Source: a phage. From it: a stretch of 64,000 bases of DNA. Positions 2,385 through 17,883 of the stretch are shown piece by piece. Position 1 is the stretch's first letter, and each line of letters begins with the position of its first letter. The stretch is taken from the sequence record PX393110.1. One strand, given 5' to 3'. The notes beneath the pieces were generated by a model, which ran no database searches, had not been told where the DNA came from, and saw nothing but the letters and a program-made list of their open reading frames with translations. A program made the translations under genes and the position numbers.

Positions 2385-5150
2385 CTACTCTTCCATAAAC
2401 GTAGTTACGTTATTGGAAAGGTAGGCACCGATTTTAGTATTATATCTCTGGAACGTAGGTACATGAGTAACCAGGATGATGTGATTAACCGGAATGTCCT
2501 GGAGAGCATCGATAGCTATGTCCAGAGTATTCACATCCAGATTCTTCAACGACTCATCCAGAATCAGGCATCCAGCACCTTTACTAAGGCTAATCAGCTT
2601 ACCGATGAACAGTACGTCCACCAGGTTCTGCTGACCACCAGAGAGATCAGAATACGGAATCAGGAACTCACCGACTTTGTATTGAACATCAAAGTCAATC
2701 TTGATATTTCCATTAGCCTGTTCACGAACGGTAGAGATGACCATATCACCACCAGTCATCATCGCAGCCACTTCCTTAAAGATAGAAGCAGTTACGTCAC
2801 CGCTATTAGTGAACAGATTCTGATACTCCACCAGCTTCTGATACTTAGGCTGAAGAGTAGCCAGCTCAGAGTTAGCCTTATCCAGCTTCGTCTGAGCATC
2901 GTCCATACGAGACTTAAGACTACGAAGAGTAGCCATAGCTCCGATAGTGGAGTTAATCTCGATAAGCTCTTGTTCCAGCTTAGCGACTTCCTCTTCCAGA
3001 ACTTGCACGGAGGAATAGGACTTAGTCTTATTCTTAAGCACTTCCACATCGCTATTGACGGTATGAATCTTCTGGCGAAGAGTGGCCACATCGTTTAGCA
3101 GACCGGACTTACGACGGAGTTCGACTAATTCGTTATTCTTAAGAGCCAGCTTCTGTCGGATTTCATCAGACTTAGGAGCCTTACTTATCTCAGCTTCCAC
3201 AGCATCCAACTTAGACACAGATACAGATCCCTGTGTCTCGAGCTCATCCATCTTACTTCTGATAGAGCTCTGTACCTGCTTAATGTCCTCTTCCTTAAGA
3301 GACTGTTTACAGGTAGGACAGGTAGTGGGAATATTCCGCATTTCTGTCTCTAACTTAGTCAACTCCTGTTCCAGACGAGTCAACTCCTTAGTTAGAGATT
3401 CGCTCTGGTTATGGAGCGAACGAATATTCCCTTCTACTTCCGACACTTCGGCATCTAGCAGAGTAATTTCGCCACGGACATTAGCGAGTGCGGAGTTAAC
3501 CTCTTCTTCGCTAAAGTCTATATTGAACGCAGCCAGCGAGTCTTCCAACATCTGAAGACTCTGTAGCTTACTATCCAAATTACCCAGCTCCCGGATCTTC
3601 TGACGAATATCATCAATCTGAGGAAGGATTCGGGATTTAGCCTCTTCCAGATCACTTACGTCCTTGAGTCTGGAGAAATCGTGATCCTCCATCGTCTTAA
3701 GGACTTCTTCCTGAGCAGTAACCTGAGTCTGGAGATTACCGATCTCTACCTTACAGTTCTTAGCCGAGGCCTTTGCGACAGCTTCGTACTGGTTAATTAC
3801 GGTAAGACCAAGCATCTTCGTTATCAGGTTGATACGCTCGTTGAATCCGAACTGGCTAAGGAACGGAGGACTGTTCTGGGAGCGGTACAGAAGATCGAAG
3901 TGTTCGAGGAATGGCAGCATCTCCCAGAGCTTAGCTTCACGCTCACGAATACTTCCGCCATCCATCTCATCGCCATCAATCCAGACTCGGAACGTCTGAC
4001 CACCAGCCCAATGGCGACTGATCAGGAATTCACGACCACCATACTCCAGCATCACTTCTACCAGAAGATGGTCCTGACCGAGTCTCACCACGTTACGAGG
4101 ACTGTCGCTACCAGTTAAGCAGTAGTTCAGAGCTCGTAACAGCGAGGATTTACCATTACCGGTTTCGCCGTAGAGATAAGTCAGACCTTTCTTAAAGTCC
4201 AGCTCCAACTTATCGATGCTACGGAAGTTCTCTACCTTAATGCTATTTAAGGTAAAGTTGAGGTCGAATACCGACTCGGAACGATCAACGTGGGTAGACA
4301 TCTCATCATGGATATCTTTAAGACCTTTAGCCCGAACGACTTTATCGATAACTTCTTCGACATCAATAGACTTAACCGAGATGCGTGAAGCATCCATCAT
4401 CTGAGCTCGTTCACGAACTACCAGATGTGGGTAATTGTCCAATCCGACAGGAACCTCATCTTCCCAGTACATCTTTAAGTACTTAAAGGAATCAGACTCT
4501 ACCGGAACCCGCTGCCAGGAAAGATCTTTGAGATCCAGCAGTACCAGACTGCCTTCCTGACTATCACCCATCCCATGAGGAATAGGCACGTTCACCGAGT
4601 GAGTATGACCGATGCTGATAGGACGGTGGATGTCACCCGCAAATCCCAGATCGTACTTAGTATCGTCGAACTCCTGACCGAACATCGAGGACAGGGTAAT
4701 ATGGCCGATTAGGACATCTACTTTATCCTGGATGAAGCTAAAGTCCTGAGTCGGACGCCAGTCGCTGAAGGCGACCTTACGGCCACCTAAGTTCAGGATC
4801 TTACCATCGACATACTCCGCCTTACCAGCCAGGATCGGCACCAGCGAGTTCTGATAGTGATCAGCATCTACCGATTTGGAGTTAATGTCGTGGTTACCCA
4901 GAATGTAGTAAATCTCGGAGAACTGCTCACCGAGGATGTCCATAAACTGGGAAGTAGCATGTGCAATCTTAGGCTCGTGCTGAGCCTTATGCACCAAGTC
5001 GCCAGCGATAGATAGGCAAGTAACTTTATGTTCCTTACCCATCTCCACCATACGATGAGCCAATCTGATAAACTGCTTTAGCCGAAACCCTTCCGAGTTA
5101 TGTTGCTGAAACTCATGAATATGAATATCAGCAGCAATTAACATTTTCAT
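2385..5150 (-). CDS. Fused Mre11/SbcD-like nuclease and Rad50/SbcC-like ATPase (single 921-aa polypeptide)
   Basis: N-terminal calcineurin-like phosphoesterase motifs (DIHIHE, GDLVH, GNHD, GDIHRP, GHTH); then Walker A GETGNGKSS, a long heptad-rich region with a CPTC zinc-hook, ABC signature LSGGQQ, Walker B CLILDE and H-loop VTHV. RBS GGAG before the ATG at 5150. Confidence 0.75.
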   Translation of the reverse strand: MKMLIAADIHIHEFQQHNSEGFRLKQFIRLAHRMVEMGKEHKVTCLSIAGDLVHKAQHEPKIAHATSQFMDILGEQFSEIYYILGNHDINSKSVDADHYQNSLVPILAGKAEYVDGKILNLGGRKVAFSDWRPTQDFSFIQDKVDVLIGHITLSSMFGQEFDDTKYDLGFAGDIHRPISIGHTHSVNVPIPHGMGDSQEGSLVLLDLKDLSWQRVPVESDSFKYLKMYWEDEVPVGLDNYPHLVVRERAQMMDASRISVKSIDVEEVIDKVVRAKGLKDIHDEMSTHVDRSESVFDLNFTLNSIKVENFRSIDKLELDFKKGLTYLYGETGNGKSSLLRALNYCLTGSDSPRNVVRLGQDHLLVEVMLEYGGREFLISRHWAGGQTFRVWIDGDEMDGGSIREREAKLWEMLPFLEHFDLLYRSQNSPPFLSQFGFNERINLITKMLGLTVINQYEAVAKASAKNCKVEIGNLQTQVTAQEEVLKTMEDHDFSRLKDVSDLEEAKSRILPQIDDIRQKIRELGNLDSKLQSLQMLEDSLAAFNIDFSEEEVNSALANVRGEITLLDAEVSEVEGNIRSLHNQSESLTKELTRLEQELTKLETEMRNIPTTCPTCKQSLKEEDIKQVQSSIRSKMDELETQGSVSVSKLDAVEAEISKAPKSDEIRQKLALKNNELVELRRKSGLLNDVATLRQKIHTVNSDVEVLKNKTKSYSSVQVLEEEVAKLEQELIEINSTIGAMATLRSLKSRMDDAQTKLDKANSELATLQPKYQKLVEYQNLFTNSGDVTASIFKEVAAMMTGGDMVISTVREQANGNIKIDFDVQYKVGEFLIPYSDLSGGQQNLVDVLFIGKLISLSKGAGCLILDESLKNLDVNTLDIAIDALQDIPVNHIILVTHVPTFQRYNTKIGAYLSNNVTTFMEE

Positions 5151-13392: not shown

Positions 13393-14184
13393 TCAATACC
13401 GTGGGTCGGTATCCTGATAATCGCGAATCAAGTCATAGACGAGCACATCCAGACGAGTAGCATCTTCACGCTTCATGCGGGTAGGTCTGTACATATGAAT
13501 ACATACACAGTGCTTAGACCATACCTTAGCAGTCTGACGTTCCGTAAGTTCTTTACGGTCGACGATGTACTTCTCGAATGCGTGATAAGAGATAGGCTTT
13601 GATACTTCGATATATTGGCACATATCGAGGAATTGCGGGTAGTCGTCAGTCAGGTAACGACTGAATACATCCTGGTAATAGGAGTAGTTAGGGAACTTAC
13701 CACCATTTTCCAGAGATAAAGCATGAGTCTCTATCTCCTTCAGCATCAGAGACATGAATGCCTGATTATTGCTGGGGGAGGTCCACATGTTGATTTCGCA
13801 GTAGTCTAACCGAGGGGAATAAACGCGTACCTGAGTCTCGTGAGGAGTGTAGGTTTCGTGAGGGCTTCGGATAAAGAGTGTATCAGCATCAACATAGGAG
13901 TAACCACGAAGATCCATCATTACCTGAATCTTGAGTCGCAGGTAATCACATACAGAGGCCATCTTAGCCTTAGTCTTCAGGATATTATACGCTTTCTCCA
14001 TGATAGGATCTCTGGCGAATAAATCCTGGATCATAATGCATCGGCACCCTTCGATAATGTTTTCAGTATTATCGATCACCAGCACATGGTCCTTAGGTCC
14101 ATATTTCTGTAAGGATTTAATGCATTCCCGAACATGGATAGGCATCTTTGGTCCTACCCAAAGCTGGAAATAATTCTGACTCAT
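13393..14184 (-). CDS. Putative glycosyltransferase (GT32 / Gly_transf_sug-like)
   Basis: SVCDYLRLKIQVMMDLRGYSYVDADTLF matches the D-x-x-R-x-x-x-L...G-x-Y-x-D-x-D signature of GT32-type sugar transferases; RBS AGAGGTAA. Confidence 0.5.
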   Translation of the reverse strand: MSQNYFQLWVGPKMPIHVRECIKSLQKYGPKDHVLVIDNTENIIEGCRCIMIQDLFARDPIMEKAYNILKTKAKMASVCDYLRLKIQVMMDLRGYSYVDADTLFIRSPHETYTPHETQVRVYSPRLDYCEINMWTSPSNNQAFMSLMLKEIETHALSLENGGKFPNYSYYQDVFSRYLTDDYPQFLDMCQYIEVSKPISYHAFEKYIVDRKELTERQTAKVWSKHCVCIHMYRPTRMKREDATRLDVLVYDLIRDYQDTDPRY

Positions 14185-14817
14185 AGTTACCTCTATGTTA
14201 TTTATTTTAAACTGGATAGGGACCTAATAGAGTAAATTAGTAAATAAATACTTATTAGTTACCTCTTACCTATGCTAAGGGAAGCGTACTCGAGGAGTAC
14301 AGAGGCTTAGCGAAAGAGCGGAGTAACACCTTTATCCCAATTAGTCAAAGTAGAGAGCGAAGGAGTCGCGCCCGCTTGAGGCGGCGCGACCTCCGCTTCA
14401 CCAATCCTACCGGATGAGCGCCTGCGACCACCCGAGCCTACCCCTGCATCACTCTCTAAAGCCACTTCGGGCTTTACCTCGTTCTGCTACGCGATACGCA
14501 GGCGATAGCTACACTAAGTCCCCTGGAGATGGCTAGTAAGCATCCGCTACCAGTCATATCCAACCTAACATTGGCGAAGCCAGGGACTAGGCACTCCGCG
14601 CCAATAAGCTACATTAGGATTTATGTCCGTATTCGAAGATAGGCCGATCGGTGAGACTATGCATTCATCTCTGCTCAACCAGGAAGCGCCGATTAGGGTA
14701 AATACCCAAACTACCTTCTTAATGTCACTCCTCCCAGACCGCTTCGGGACTTAGCTTAAGTCATATCCGAATAATCTGGCATCTACGACGGACCGTAGTG
14801 TATGGAGCGTACTGCAA

Positions 14818-14849
14818 TTTAACAGCCTTTCGATTCATCAAAAGAGCGT
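14818..14849 (-). promoter_or_regulatory. Conserved promoter-like motif, copy 5
   Basis: TTTAACAGCCTTTCGATTCATCAAAAGAGCG; faces about 600 nt of ORF-free sequence before the glycosyltransferase gene. Confidence 0.5.
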
Positions 14850-14978
14850 AATTAGGGACCCGATTATTCCACTTAGCTGCCATCCGTTCGGGTCAACACA
14901 GATCGTTCCAGGTCTTAGGCATCATACCAGACCGTTTCAGTACACTCGGATTATTAGTTCCCGGTGACCATTTAAAGA

Positions 14979-15054
14979 TGGTGGCCCATACTGGTTTCGA
15001 ACCAGTGACCAATCGATTATGAGTCGACTGCTCTCACCACTGAGCTAATGGGCC
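14979..15054 (-). tRNA. tRNA-Met (anticodon CAT; elongator-type, or Ile2 if lysidinylated), CCA encoded
   Basis: Hand-folded cloverleaf: acceptor GGCCCAT/ATGGGCC, D-stem GCTC/GAGC, anticodon stem GTCGA/TCGAT, loop CTCATAA, T-stem ACTGG/CCAGT, T-loop TTCGAAA, 3' ACCA; 76 nt. Confidence 0.85.
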
Positions 15055-15199
15055 GAACTGGTCGGGACCGTGGCCCACACTAGAGGATTTGCCAAACTCC
15101 CCATTATCATGGCCTAAGCCATCCAGACAGCCGTGACTACCCTGCTCCGGTACATGTGATAATGGGGACGTATCCAAAAATGTGGAGATCCCGTTAAGG

Positions 15200-15276
15200 T
15201 GGTACTCCCTACAGGATTCGAACCTGTGACCAATAGCTTAGAAGGCTACTGCTCTATCCAGCTGAGCTAAGGGAGC
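15200..15276 (-). tRNA. tRNA-Arg (anticodon TCT), CCA encoded
   Basis: Hand-folded cloverleaf: acceptor GCTCCCT/AGGGAGT (G1-U72), D-stem GCTC/GAGC, anticodon stem GTAGC/GCTAT, loop CTTCTAA, T-stem ACAGG/CCTGT, T-loop TTCGAAT; 77 nt. Confidence 0.85.
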
Positions 15277-15457
15277 TTATTAATTCTTCTACCTGCTTAA
15301 CAGATTTATTCATGCCTGTTCCGTGACACTCCCCGCAGACCCAAGTCCGACAGAAGATATCACCAGGCTCAGCATCGTCACACTCTCCTAAACCTCCACA
15401 TTCTGGACATTTAGCTTCATTAACAATACTTCTTAGCTTATGAAAAGTAGTTTCCAT
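15254..15457 (-). CDS. Small zinc-ribbon protein (CPEC...CGEC)
   Basis: 67 aa with two CxxC pairs; RBS GGAGGA before the ATG at 15457; the 3' end overlaps the tRNA-Arg 5' end by 23 nt. Confidence 0.45.
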   Translation of the reverse strand: METTFHKLRSIVNEAKCPECGGLGECDDAEPGDIFCRTWVCGECHGTGMNKSVKQVEELISSLSSAG

Positions 15458-15473
15458 AAATCCTCCATTTTAG

Positions 15474-15541
15474 GATGACCTCTTAGCTTACCATCGCGAA
15501 AAGCTACATGGAGTGTAGTTAACGTGAACTAAGAGGTCATC
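15474..15541 (-). promoter_or_regulatory. Structured element closed by a 13-bp perfect inverted repeat
   Basis: GATGACCTCTTAG (15474-15486) pairs with CTAAGAGGTCATC (15529-15541); the enclosed 42 nt hold two further hairpins (TAGCTT/AAGCTA and CTACA/TGTAG). Lies directly 5' of the RBS of the zinc-ribbon gene. Confidence 0.4.
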
Positions 15542-15547
15542 ATAAAA

Positions 15548-15649: not shown

Positions 15650-15989
15650 CGTACTCTCCTGAGAAATATTATCCTGCTTACTGTTACAGGGACGCCGTTC
15701 GTCGCGCCAGATTACCAATCGGCGATTAAGCCGATCTCGCCAACCGCGTAACGCCATTGGCTGGTATCACATAGGCTTGTAGCCCTCAGTCAACCTGTCC
15801 TGAGGAGGTAGGAAGAGCCATACGCCAAATCCGGGATTGATAGTCCCATATAGCTTCCTACTTTGCCATTCTCGTATGGCCTCGGATACGACTGTCTCTG
15901 GGTAAGGAGTCCCGACAGCTGATACGGTTTAGTTTATTTTTAATTTGAGTCCCACTCATACCTTACAGACTCAAGCACTGCAGACCACC

Positions 15990-16019
15990 GAAAAACCGAC
16001 TGGTACGCTAGCAGTCGGT
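15990..16019 (-). terminator. Rho-independent terminator about 30 nt downstream of promoter-like motif copy 6
   Basis: Stem ACCGACTG/CAGTCGGT (8 bp) with a 9-nt loop, followed on the minus strand by TTTTT. Confidence 0.5.
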
Positions 16020-16049
16020 CCCACGGATCCCATGAACAACTTATGACAA

Positions 16050-16080
16050 TTTAACAGCCTTTCGAGTCATCAAAAGAGTG
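16050..16080 (-). promoter_or_regulatory. Conserved promoter-like motif, copy 6
   Basis: TTTAACAGCCTTTCGAGTCATCAAAAGAGTG; no ORF of 60 aa or more within about 290 nt downstream. Confidence 0.5.
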
Positions 16081-16231
16081 TTAAGTTGCCCGCTCCCTAT
16101 CACCGAGCACTGTGATGATGGGAAATAGGGAGCGAAACGATTCCTAAGTTTTATCTTCTTCTCTAAGTGATTAACCGTTACATACGATATACCTTCTTAG
16201 TTAGATAAGCCGGAATTGGCACTTCGAACAC

Positions 16232-16263
16232 TTTAACAGCCTTTCGACCGTACAAAAGAGCGG
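16232..16263 (-). promoter_or_regulatory. Conserved promoter-like motif, copy 7
   Basis: TTTAACAGCCTTTCGACCGTACAAAAGAGCGG; tandem with copy 8, 58 bp apart. Confidence 0.5.
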
Positions 16264-16268
16264 CGTAA

Positions 16269-16811
16269 TTAGACGCTCGCCTCAGACACTTTAACAGCCT
16301 TTGGAACTGTAAAAAGAGCGGGTTTATACCATTCGGGAGTGCGGTAGAAAGTAATGGTACGACCCTCTTTCTCCCAGATATAGTATTTATCGTTCAGGTA
16401 GTTACGATACTTCTCGTAAACTGTTTCGCCAGGAGCACCTGCCACACACGCATAAGGTGTCATGTCAGTCTCCGGACCGACCTTCAAGTTCTTAGGCAGT
16501 TTGCTGAGTCGCGACAGAATAATATCTGTGGCATGCATACGACCGGTACGTTCATAGAACAGGATACACAGATAGTTAGCCAGCTCTTTAACGAAGTTGT
16601 AGTTACCGGAAGATTCACGGACCCAGCGTGCTGATGGGTGATTTACGTGAGTCTGTTTGTAAATACCCTCGATAGCTTGATCGCCATCCAGAACATGATG
16701 AGCTGTGGACAACAGCTGAGCACATTCGATAATCATTTTATTCTGGTGCATTGGCATACAATGGTCCATAGCACATTCTAACGCATCTTCGTGAGTACGG
16801 AAAATATTCAC
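16269..16811 (-). CDS. hypothetical protein (180 aa; GTG start)
   Basis: ORF track; AGGAG 8 nt upstream of the GTG at 16811. Confidence 0.5.
   Translation of the reverse strand: MNIFRTHEDALECAMDHCMPMHQNKMIIECAQLLSTAHHVLDGDQAIEGIYKQTHVNHPSARWVRESSGNYNFVKELANYLCILFYERTGRMHATDIILSRLSKLPKNLKVGPETDMTPYACVAGAPGETVYEKYRNYLNDKYYIWEKEGRTITFYRTPEWYKPALFTVPKAVKVSEASV
16290..16321 (-). promoter_or_regulatory. Conserved promoter-like motif, copy 8 (overlaps the 3' end of the upstream CDS)
   Basis: TTTAACAGCCTTTGGAACTGTAAAAAGAGCGG; the last codons of the 16269-16811 ORF read through it. Confidence 0.45.
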
Positions 16812-17093: not shown

Positions 17094-17429
17094 TCATAAG
17101 AACATTTTGACAAGATGTTTAGTACCGTTGATAGCAGCTTTCTTAGCAGCCGACTTAACATGAGCTTTAACTTTCTTATGTAAAGTCTTGGACTTAGCCT
17201 TATTTTTAAGGAGTCGTCCGGCAGCTTTAGCCCTACGCTTGATTCTGTTAGCTGATTCGGAAATAGCAATACCTTCCTCATCAGTAACATCATCAACATT
17301 AGACGAAGCTATCATCAGTAACTGATCATCGGTTAAACCAGCTGCTATGGTTTTGACGAATATTCCTTCATCGACATCACCAACAGCATTAAGGAGATCC
17401 TGTGATTTTGACATAATCTTCCCATACAT
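17094..17429 (-). CDS. hypothetical protein (111 aa, lysine-rich C-terminus)
   Basis: ORF track; AAGGAAG 7 nt upstream of the ATG at 17429. Confidence 0.45.
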   Translation of the reverse strand: MYGKIMSKSQDLLNAVGDVDEGIFVKTIAAGLTDDQLLMIASSNVDDVTDEEGIAISESANRIKRRAKAAGRLLKNKAKSKTLHKKVKAHVKSAAKKAAINGTKHLVKMFL

Positions 17430-17883
17430 TAATTACTTCCTTACCCAGAGATTTAGCATGGGTTACACAGTTACCTGTACCACCCTTGCTGCCATCCCAT
17501 AAGGCTAATCCCTTCTGACTACGGTTAACCATGTAACGGTTACGCACCATCATCTTGAAAGAATCATACCCAGGCTCGGAAACTATAATTGTGCGACGAC
17601 TTCTCCTGCAGAGCTCAGTCCATTTTTCTACATCTGCAGATCGCCACATCTTGGGCTGGTCAATCATAGGGACTGCTGCGAAATATGGTATTCCGAGGTT
17701 AGCACATGCTTGAGCACATGCCATGTCCCATCCTAAAGCCATACCCACGAACCAGCAGTCGACCTTATTTTCTTCGGTCAACCTCTGGATATGATGTTCG
17801 GCAAACTGGGTAAGCTGATCATGGCTAAAGATATCCCAGCCACCCAGTTTATCTGGCCTATGACCAGTGACGAACATAAACAT
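17389..17883 (-). CDS. Possible SLOG/YpsA-like Rossmann-fold protein
   Basis: 164 aa; TGHRP near the N-terminus and WDGSKGGTGN near the C-terminus, recalled as typical of YpsA/DUF1273-type SLOG domains; assignment from memory only. Confidence 0.3.
   Translation of the reverse strand: MFMFVTGHRPDKLGGWDIFSHDQLTQFAEHHIQRLTEENKVDCWFVGMALGWDMACAQACANLGIPYFAAVPMIDQPKMWRSADVEKWTELCRRSRRTIIVSEPGYDSFKMMVRNRYMVNRSQKGLALWDGSKGGTGNCVTHAKSLGKEVINVWEDYVKITGSP

Follow-up and report, generated by a model that had tools for sequence, protein, structure and literature searches.

Positions 14185-14978 of a phage sequence, record PX393110.1, are best read as a minus-strand non-coding RNA locus, whose core would be a large structured phage RNA that acts as RNA in a genomic context like that of the GOLLD and ROOL RNAs. 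We give this reading a probability of roughly 0.45, and the class of RNA is most likely one that has not been catalogued. The stretch lies in a window of 64 kilobases (kb), by which we mean the whole length of DNA that was analysed; this window is part of a lytic coliphage genome and is ~91% identical to Escherichia phages vB_EcoM_IME392 (IME392) and EP_H11. Three parts make up the stretch: a transfer RNA (tRNA) trailer of ~120 nucleotides (nt), a repeated gene-start motif, and a GC-rich core of ~0.55 kb.

All genes around 14185-14978 are on the minus strand, and read in that direction their order is tRNA-Arg(TCT), a 145-nt spacer, tRNA-Met(CAT), the stretch itself and an open reading frame (ORF) of 263 amino acids (aa). 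The stretch sits inside a replication-gene module with helicases, a 5'-3' exonuclease, SbcCD-like proteins and a topoisomerase. A first-pass annotation, made from the letters of the window, had singled out 14185-14978 as lacking any ORF of at least 60 aa on either strand and as lying beside a tRNA-Met. Both observations were borne out, as the longest ORF is 52 aa and the tRNA-Met was found on the minus strand at 15054..14979. With the tRNAs included, 14185-15253 is the largest ORF-free gap of the window, the second being 15758-16268. GC content is 56.7% at 14301-14600, which is among the three highest 300-nt windows (mean of the whole window, 45.8%), and 35% at 14100-14299. In the direction of transcription the features are as follows.

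15276..15200, minus strand: tRNA-Arg (TCT), found by ARAGORN and Rfam.
15054..14979, minus strand: tRNA-Met (CAT), whose 3' CCA abuts the structured trailer; found by ARAGORN and by the Rfam tRNA model at 72 bits.
14978..14185, minus strand: the ORF-free stretch, 794 nt from tRNA-Met to the next gene.
14969..14847, minus strand: tRNA trailer of ~120 nt directly 3' of tRNA-Met, with two hairpins and an H-type pseudoknot.
14849..14815, minus strand: gene-start (promoter-like) motif, CGCTCTTTTG-N6-TCGAAAGGCTGTTAAATTG, an exact copy of the repeated core of that motif.
14352..14809, minus strand: GC-rich core, read as untranslated RNA; divergence 3-5%, 1-nt insertions or deletions (indels), no Rfam match.
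14465..14307, minus strand: candidate sense ORF of 52 aa that begins with GTG within the core, the basis of a rival explanation.
14324..14351, minus strand: variable linker (alignment A3, columns 646-670), where IME392 differs at 11 positions, all predicted to be unpaired.
14263..14323, minus strand: 3' hairpin domain GCUAAG...CUUAGC enclosing GUACUC/GAGUAC, predicted by RNAalifold with a base-pair probability of 0.92 in three genomes.
14185..14262, minus strand: AT-rich spacer with the Shine-Dalgarno sequence of the next gene, AGAGGU, at its end; divergence 4-5%, without an intrinsic terminator.
13393..14184, minus strand: the 263-aa ORF, an ORFan taken from the ORF list and found only in this phage clade (nine cluster members).

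With the linker and the 3' hairpin included, the core spans ~0.55 kb, roughly 14809..14263. Five copies of the locus were compared: those of the window, EP_H11 (L001) and IME392 (L002), and two Logan contigs carrying the RNA that were reached via a search with neighbouring proteins, L013 (93.5% identical, partial) and L019 (98% identical). The element is present in 5/5 genomes, and all five sequences in the alignment of the locus (A3) are at least 91% identical. Over 14300-14808 the core diverges by 3.1% from EP_H11 and by 5.1% from IME392, and a sliding identity profile agrees. Four-fold degenerate sites differ at 16-18% in the abutting gene and at 28-32% when pooled over six neighbouring genes (overall range 16-48%). 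The core is thus 4-8x more conserved than such sites in the genes that flank it on either side (Fisher p = 5e-7 and 4e-4 for the abutting gene, ≤1e-23 pooled), and its divergence is at the level of the first and second codon positions of conserved enzymes. Judged by these sequence comparisons, the core is under strong purifying selection. Indels of 1 nt at A3 columns 358, 439, 490 and 596 break the frame and no long ORF is conserved, so the core is non-coding. In GenBank the EP_H11 record carries a 37-aa 'hypothetical protein' coding sequence (CDS) inside the core (L001 3548-3661), which is probably spurious, and the corresponding region of IME392 is unannotated.

The trailer is the part of the locus for which secondary structure is directly evidenced by compensatory change. 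It contains four helices.

14969..14939, minus strand: hairpin A (A3 columns 22-52), 9 base pairs (bp) closing a conserved loop of 11 nt, GAACWAAUAAU; compensatory double changes in four pairs, none broken.
14933..14911, minus strand: hairpin B (A3 columns 58-80); two pairs with double changes.
14903..14898 with 14887..14882, minus strand: helix C of the H-type pseudoknot (14857..14903); 5/6 pairs with double changes, all alignment cells paired.
14894..14888 with 14863..14857, minus strand: helix C2; an A-U to G-C exchange, all alignment cells paired.

Helix C2 crosses helix C, which makes the arrangement an H-type pseudoknot, and in IME392 a shorter hairpin is found at the place of hairpin B. 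Taken together the four helices hold 31 pairs, 12 of which have changed on both sides, and 147/147 alignment cells are standard pairs; this covariation was matched by 0/500 shuffles, and slid controls pair at 19-43%. The G-U pairs show that the RNA sense is the minus strand, and both the fold and the strand of the trailer are established. At 12-16% divergence, with its compensatory changes, the trailer is more variable than the core. An inverted repeat, 14769-14779 with 14859-14869, was also considered as a helix and was rejected, being broken by substitutions in EP_H11.

A covariance model built on the trailer hits each genome once and has no other hits. In the window and in each of the four relatives the trailer starts right after the 3' end of a tRNA or tRNA-like element, across a conserved AU-rich junction, ...CCA/UCUUUAWAUGG. 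The tRNA island upstream is rearranged between genomes, and the RNA itself is constant. The position of the trailer directly at a tRNA 3' end, next to an island this plastic, fits the pattern of a processed tRNA-operon trailer. Relatives also carry elements of ~180-190 nt between tRNA-Met and the trailer (L019 2028-2215; L001 ~3801-3980, minus strand), which have a tRNA-like acceptor stem, a T-arm, a CCA end and a large internal insert and are called by neither ARAGORN nor Rfam; they lie just upstream of the stretch, not in it. Degenerate tRNA-like genes had been proposed for the stretch, and this proposal found no support: ARAGORN and the Rfam tRNA model (RF00005, at E ≤ 10) detect the two tRNAs that flank it but nothing within 14185-14978.

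The copy of the gene-start motif at 14849..14815 lies ~130 nt below tRNA-Met and divides the stretch in two. The full motif reads CGCTCTTTTG-N6-TCGAAAGGCTGTTAAAnTG, and its core, AAAGGCTGTTAA, occurs 12 times in the window, all copies being exact and all on the minus strand, versus 0.3 expected by chance.

1712, 7157, 12364, 13354, 14819, 16051, 16233, 16291, 16898, 18244, 62516 and 63591, minus strand: the 12 copies of the motif.

The other copies stand 15-35 nt ahead of a ribosome-binding site and start codon, and from this position ahead of genes we infer promoter activity for the motif. Transcription would then start at ~14809, as placed from the position of the motif. A sigma-70 consensus scan (-35 and -10 hexamers with 16-18 nt spacing) gave no match at 14815-14849; the motif reads as an extended -10 (TGnTAAAnT) plus a conserved upstream block. 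The first-pass annotation was right that a promoter-like motif is present at 14815-14849, but misplaced it at the edge of the stretch, since with the genes on the minus strand it is ~130 nt inside the upstream end. Acinetobacter phage Ab1-TPeters (L020 and L021) has a related motif, CAAAAGCTGTTTAAAGT, in three copies (L020, ~17575, 18255 and 19505). The 5' half of the motif can form a hairpin, CUUUUGA/UCGAAAG, and by eye the variant copies seem to keep the pairing. The motif begins with CGCTCTTT, which we take to resemble the boxA antitermination element. The motif may be a promoter, a site that works at the RNA level, or both.

For the core, the fold is a prediction. RNAalifold gives ~160 pairs, of which 142 are invariant, 3 have changed on both sides, 6 have a compatible change on one side and 8 include unpaired cells, and 14 local helices are robust in three genomes. 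A covariation analysis across related phages, as the first-pass annotation had advised, yields a strong signal in the 120-nt trailer but only 3 covarying pairs in the core. One hairpin, GTCGCGCC/GGCGCGAC at ~14366-14389, is predicted with high probability in three genomes, in agreement with the hairpin with an 8-bp stem already noticed near 14365-14392. Variable columns are rarer at predicted paired positions than at unpaired ones (6.6% versus 15.6%, p = 5.5e-4; p = 0.02 without the IME392-specific linker). The constraint in the core is thus mainly one of sequence; its cause could be a tertiary fold that is dense, contact with binding partners, or a role at the DNA level.

The minimum free energy is -265.5 kcal/mol for the minus strand versus -232.9 kcal/mol for the plus strand, and the folding z-score of the whole region is -2.3 on both strands; the low energies are mostly due to GC content. 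The thermodynamics thus lend no support to a hairpin density above chance, as z-scores are ordinary. The CTTCGG sequences that had been taken for UUCG tetraloops belong to the strand that is not transcribed. Their form in the RNA is CCGAAG, placed in a loop of 6 nt, in one arm of a helix and in one arm of a pseudoknot. Nor did we see an accumulation of motifs like those of a CsrA sponge, GGA occurring 11 times in the 624-nt RNA, a raw count with no expectation beside it that is not noticeably high.

We propose the following scheme for the locus, in which the transcription start, the fold of the core, transcript processing and any trans-acting role are all inferred. A minus-strand RNA locus would have been appended to the tRNA-Arg/tRNA-Met operon. 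Read-through from the operon would yield the ~120-nt structured trailer, which would probably be released or protected upon processing of the tRNA 3' end at the UCUUUAWAUGG junction. The motif, resembling an early or middle promoter, would start a second transcript at ~14809, and the first ~0.55 kb of this transcript would be a GC-rich, almost invariant RNA with more G than C. A cut in the AT-rich spacer would then free the large RNA from the mRNA, or else the RNA would be kept as the 5' domain of that mRNA, and the 263-aa ORFan is probably co-transcribed with it. An earlier suggestion of stable structured RNAs is upheld in that the stretch is non-coding and conserved and that the fold of the trailer, with its covariation, is on the gene strand; the accompanying picture of tRNA-like genes and a set of small RNAs is not, since most of the stretch appears as one ~0.55-kb unit behind its own promoter-like motif.

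No catalogued family accounts for the locus. Rfam searches at the gathering threshold and at E ≤ 10, over three nested ranges down to 806 nt and on both strands, returned only the two tRNAs plus chance matches (CC1840, Acido-Lenti-1, and Plastid-ycf2 on the tRNA antisense). Within the locus, the families without a match include further tRNAs, tmRNA (also not found by ARAGORN), RNase P, group I and II introns, self-cleaving ribozymes, riboswitches, GOLLD and ROOL. As a positive control, the same approach recovered a group I intron in Ab1-TPeters (L021 14135-14446), overlapping the end of one CDS and the next small CDS.

Among phages in GenBank the locus is matched only by EP_H11 and IME392. The clade is isolated, the identity of neighbouring proteins falling from ~85% to <50% with nothing between, and the ORFan downstream and the next small protein are found only in this clade. 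The order tRNA-Arg(TCT) then tRNA-Met(CAT) is kept in Ab1-TPeters (L020 18399-18936) and in phage YerA41 (L023 7119-7464), whose helicases are only ~23-38% identical to those of this phage. Since both keep the tRNA pair without the RNA, the RNA is a clade-specific addition to an ancestral tRNA island. Phages of the IME392/EP_H11 type have been classed as 'RP13-like', with SP15-type DNA polymerases and probably hypermodified thymidine (PMC12686479; bioRxiv 10.1101/2025.03.26.645540).

Several results weigh against a large RNA acting as RNA. There is no terminator-like site between the core and the next gene, which makes a discrete RNA an assumption. The sampling is thin, with five sequences at most 9% apart. 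The core fold is unproven, because there is too little sequence variation and the z-scores are ordinary: the covariation of the core was reached by 17/500 shuffles, its long-range helices differ between two RNAalifold runs, and sliding 150-nt z-scores, at -2.6 to +0.9, are no better than those of neighbouring coding sequence. The distribution is also narrow. We found no homologue in E. coli genomes, plasmids or GTDB genomes and no match in IMG/VR (with a protein query and three DNA patterns). For JGI metagenomes the promoter pattern served as the query; it brought up seven chance matches and a single short relative, which does not extend as far as the locus. Ab1-TPeters is without a homologue by blastn, nhmmer and the trailer covariance model, and so is YerA41, in which a gene comes directly after the tRNAs.

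Of the alternatives, the one that survives best is that the core is a long structured cis-acting 5' leader which controls translation, timing or mRNA stability of the downstream ORFan. We consider this unlikely, though it retains a sizeable share of our belief. For want of a terminator the core is at least physically the 5' part of the downstream mRNA, no promoter-like copy upstream of the ORFan is nearer to it than the motif at 14815-14849, and the AT-rich spacer and Shine-Dalgarno sequence are conserved too; an earlier dismissal of a long untranslated leader for this stretch was to that extent premature. However, the leaders behind the other copies of the motif are short (~15-35 nt), the ~560 nt here are constrained nearly everywhere, loops included, which is beyond what known leaders need, the Shine-Dalgarno sequence is free rather than sequestered in the predicted folds, and the riboswitch and leader families in Rfam gave no match. 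It is the length with near-total constraint, the short leaders elsewhere and the accessible Shine-Dalgarno sequence that make us favour the large RNA.

The stretch might instead act as DNA, as a transcript-activated replication origin or another cis element, with a G-rich structured pre-primer RNA and an R-loop at the AT-rich stretch. The layout would suit such a role, in that the promoter-like motif is followed by ~0.55 kb in which G exceeds C in the RNA sense and then by ~75 nt at ~25-35% GC, and so would the location inside a replication-gene module and a constraint on sequence rather than covariation. We nonetheless judge it improbable. The stretch has no iterons or notable repeats, the cumulative GC-skew minimum is at 18.1 kb, at a divergent switch (although gene orientation confounds skew), the AT-rich stretch is at the same time just the region ahead of a gene, and the syntenic relatives Ab1-TPeters and YerA41 are without the element.

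A small protein gene, namely the 52-aa GTG ORF and possibly others, together with untranslated flanks, could also have produced the conservation. The ORF is open in the window, L019 and EP_H11 (in L013 the contig breaks off after 32 codons), EP_H11 has two separate indel pairs that restore its frame, and a Shine-Dalgarno-like GAGGU is located 10 nt upstream of the GTG. Yet it spans 159 of the ~550 conserved nt, under a third, is truncated and altered in IME392, and has its start codon within a predicted high-probability hairpin; the peptide has no PHROG match and is Gly/Arg/Ala-rich and of low complexity, as expected of a chance ORF at 57% GC. This explanation is therefore very improbable in our view. 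Finally, a decaying, functionless remnant of lost tRNA genes or a dead gene, similar between relatives through recent exchange, would fit the recombinational plasticity of the tRNA island and the small number of closely related genomes compared, but is strongly disfavoured by the 4-8x higher conservation of the core than of flanking four-fold sites, the abutting gene included, by the compensatory evolution of the trailer, and by the retention of the element in all five genomes.

The large-RNA reading draws its closest parallels from two families. GOLLD (RF01998) is a ~0.8-kb non-coding RNA of phages and prophages, often near tRNA islands; in its representative env-38, which is found downstream of a Met-tRNA, the 3' region is conserved and the 5' region less so (PMC12286853). 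The present locus is alike in measuring ~0.79 kb from tRNA-Met to the next gene and in combining a variable 5' module with an almost invariant 3' core. It differs in that RF01998 gives no match even at E ≤ 10 (searched with 1.6 kb and 806 nt), in that a promoter-like motif separates the two parts, and in its host phage, a coliphage. ROOL (RF03087) has a mean length of 581 nt, occurs in phages and prophages near tRNAs, and combines a complex, pseudoknotted fold with the lack of a known function (PMC5737381; PMC12286853). The core here is likewise ~0.55 kb and lies beside tRNAs, but RF03087 has no match at E ≤ 10. ROOL has few invariant nucleotides across phyla, whereas the present RNA occurs in one narrow clade and is nearly all invariant, so that the folds are not comparable. 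Homo-oligomeric cage assembly, which is detected by cryo-EM or on native gels, is a further mark of ROOL and GOLLD (PMC12286853).

Looser analogies can be drawn for the individual parts. The tRNA cluster of phage T4 yields stable RNAs (species 1 and 2, or RNA C and D) that are small and structured, are co-transcribed with the tRNAs and are processed. A 120-nt trailer at the end of a tRNA operon would fit this description, although the present trailer includes a pseudoknot and has a far larger RNA behind it. External transcribed spacers at the 3' side of bacterial tRNA operons, 3'ETS-leuZ for one, are functional RNAs directly 3' of a tRNA that are freed by processing and sponge small RNAs via short complementarity. 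The trailer may be likened to them in its position; we found no complementarity to a target of this kind, the stretch being without a match in E. coli genomes. RNA II of ColE1, at ~550 nt, and the promoter-dependent origins of T4 and T7 combine a promoter, a structured transcript and an AT-rich region. The order of promoter-like motif, RNA of several hundred nt and AT-rich stretch seen here would resemble them, but the skew minimum is elsewhere, and no sequence relation would be expected.

The gene that follows the core is itself obscure. It had been labelled a glycosyltransferase, a label we could not verify. The 263-aa ORFan has no Pfam, NCBIfam or PDB match, its best PHROGs hit is non-significant (E = 0.09) and belongs to a family of unknown function, and its AlphaFold model is unusable at a predicted local distance difference test (pLDDT) score of 35. 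A D-A-D motif (YVDADTLF) is the sole hint of a GT-A fold.

Further features were observed around the locus. The spacer between tRNA-Arg and tRNA-Met, 15055-15199 (minus strand), contains a perfect 12-bp inverted repeat (15098-15109 with 15157-15168) and is common to L013 (91.5% identity); EP_H11, IME392 and L019 have a different sequence there. An 85-nt tRNA in EP_H11 (L001 4662-4746, minus strand) was found by Rfam only. A second ORF-free segment, 15758-16046 (minus strand), immediately follows a further copy of the motif and precedes a 69-aa ORF. Blocks of it are nearly invariant, one of its hairpins shows compensatory changes (alignment A5, columns 28-34 with 46-52), and it may represent another structured leader or RNA. 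A strong inverted repeat (GGATGACCTCTTAG ... CTAAGAGGTCATC) at ~15463-15542, in the interval that separates the 69-aa ORF from a 67-aa ORF, has a folding z-score of ~-4.5 on both strands, the most extreme of the 4 kb scanned. The 67-aa protein (15254-15457, minus strand) gives the hint of a CxxC zinc ribbon, weakly similar to the zinc finger of DnaJ. There is a hint of a DenV-like pyrimidine-dimer glycosylase at 16269-16811 (minus strand), where homologues carry PF03013 and the window protein is without a Pfam match; DenV-like proteins are widespread, but without synteny. At 17389-17883 (minus strand) there is a hint of a YpsA/SLOG-family protein.

Beyond the reading of the core as an RNA acting as RNA, we entertain a more specific proposal as a tentative and somewhat unlikely possibility. 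The locus would represent a new class of phage RNA, large (0.55-0.8 kb) and with an elaborate fold, here carried by a lytic E. coli phage whose DNA is probably hypermodified. Such an RNA would be unrelated in sequence to GOLLD and ROOL and functionally analogous to them, being linked to tRNAs and divided into a variable 5' and a conserved 3' domain, and it might assemble with itself or bind ribosomes or tRNAs. Interest in it is tempered by the narrow distribution and by the core fold being a prediction. Whichever reading applies, the analysis has revealed a covariation-supported, pseudoknotted trailer on a phage tRNA operon, and a leader or an origin would still make the core an unannotated functional element. 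GOLLD and ROOL are RNAs with striking structures and no known function whose hosts are hard to manipulate. If the proposal is true, this lytic E. coli phage would offer a genetically tractable model for the function of such RNAs.

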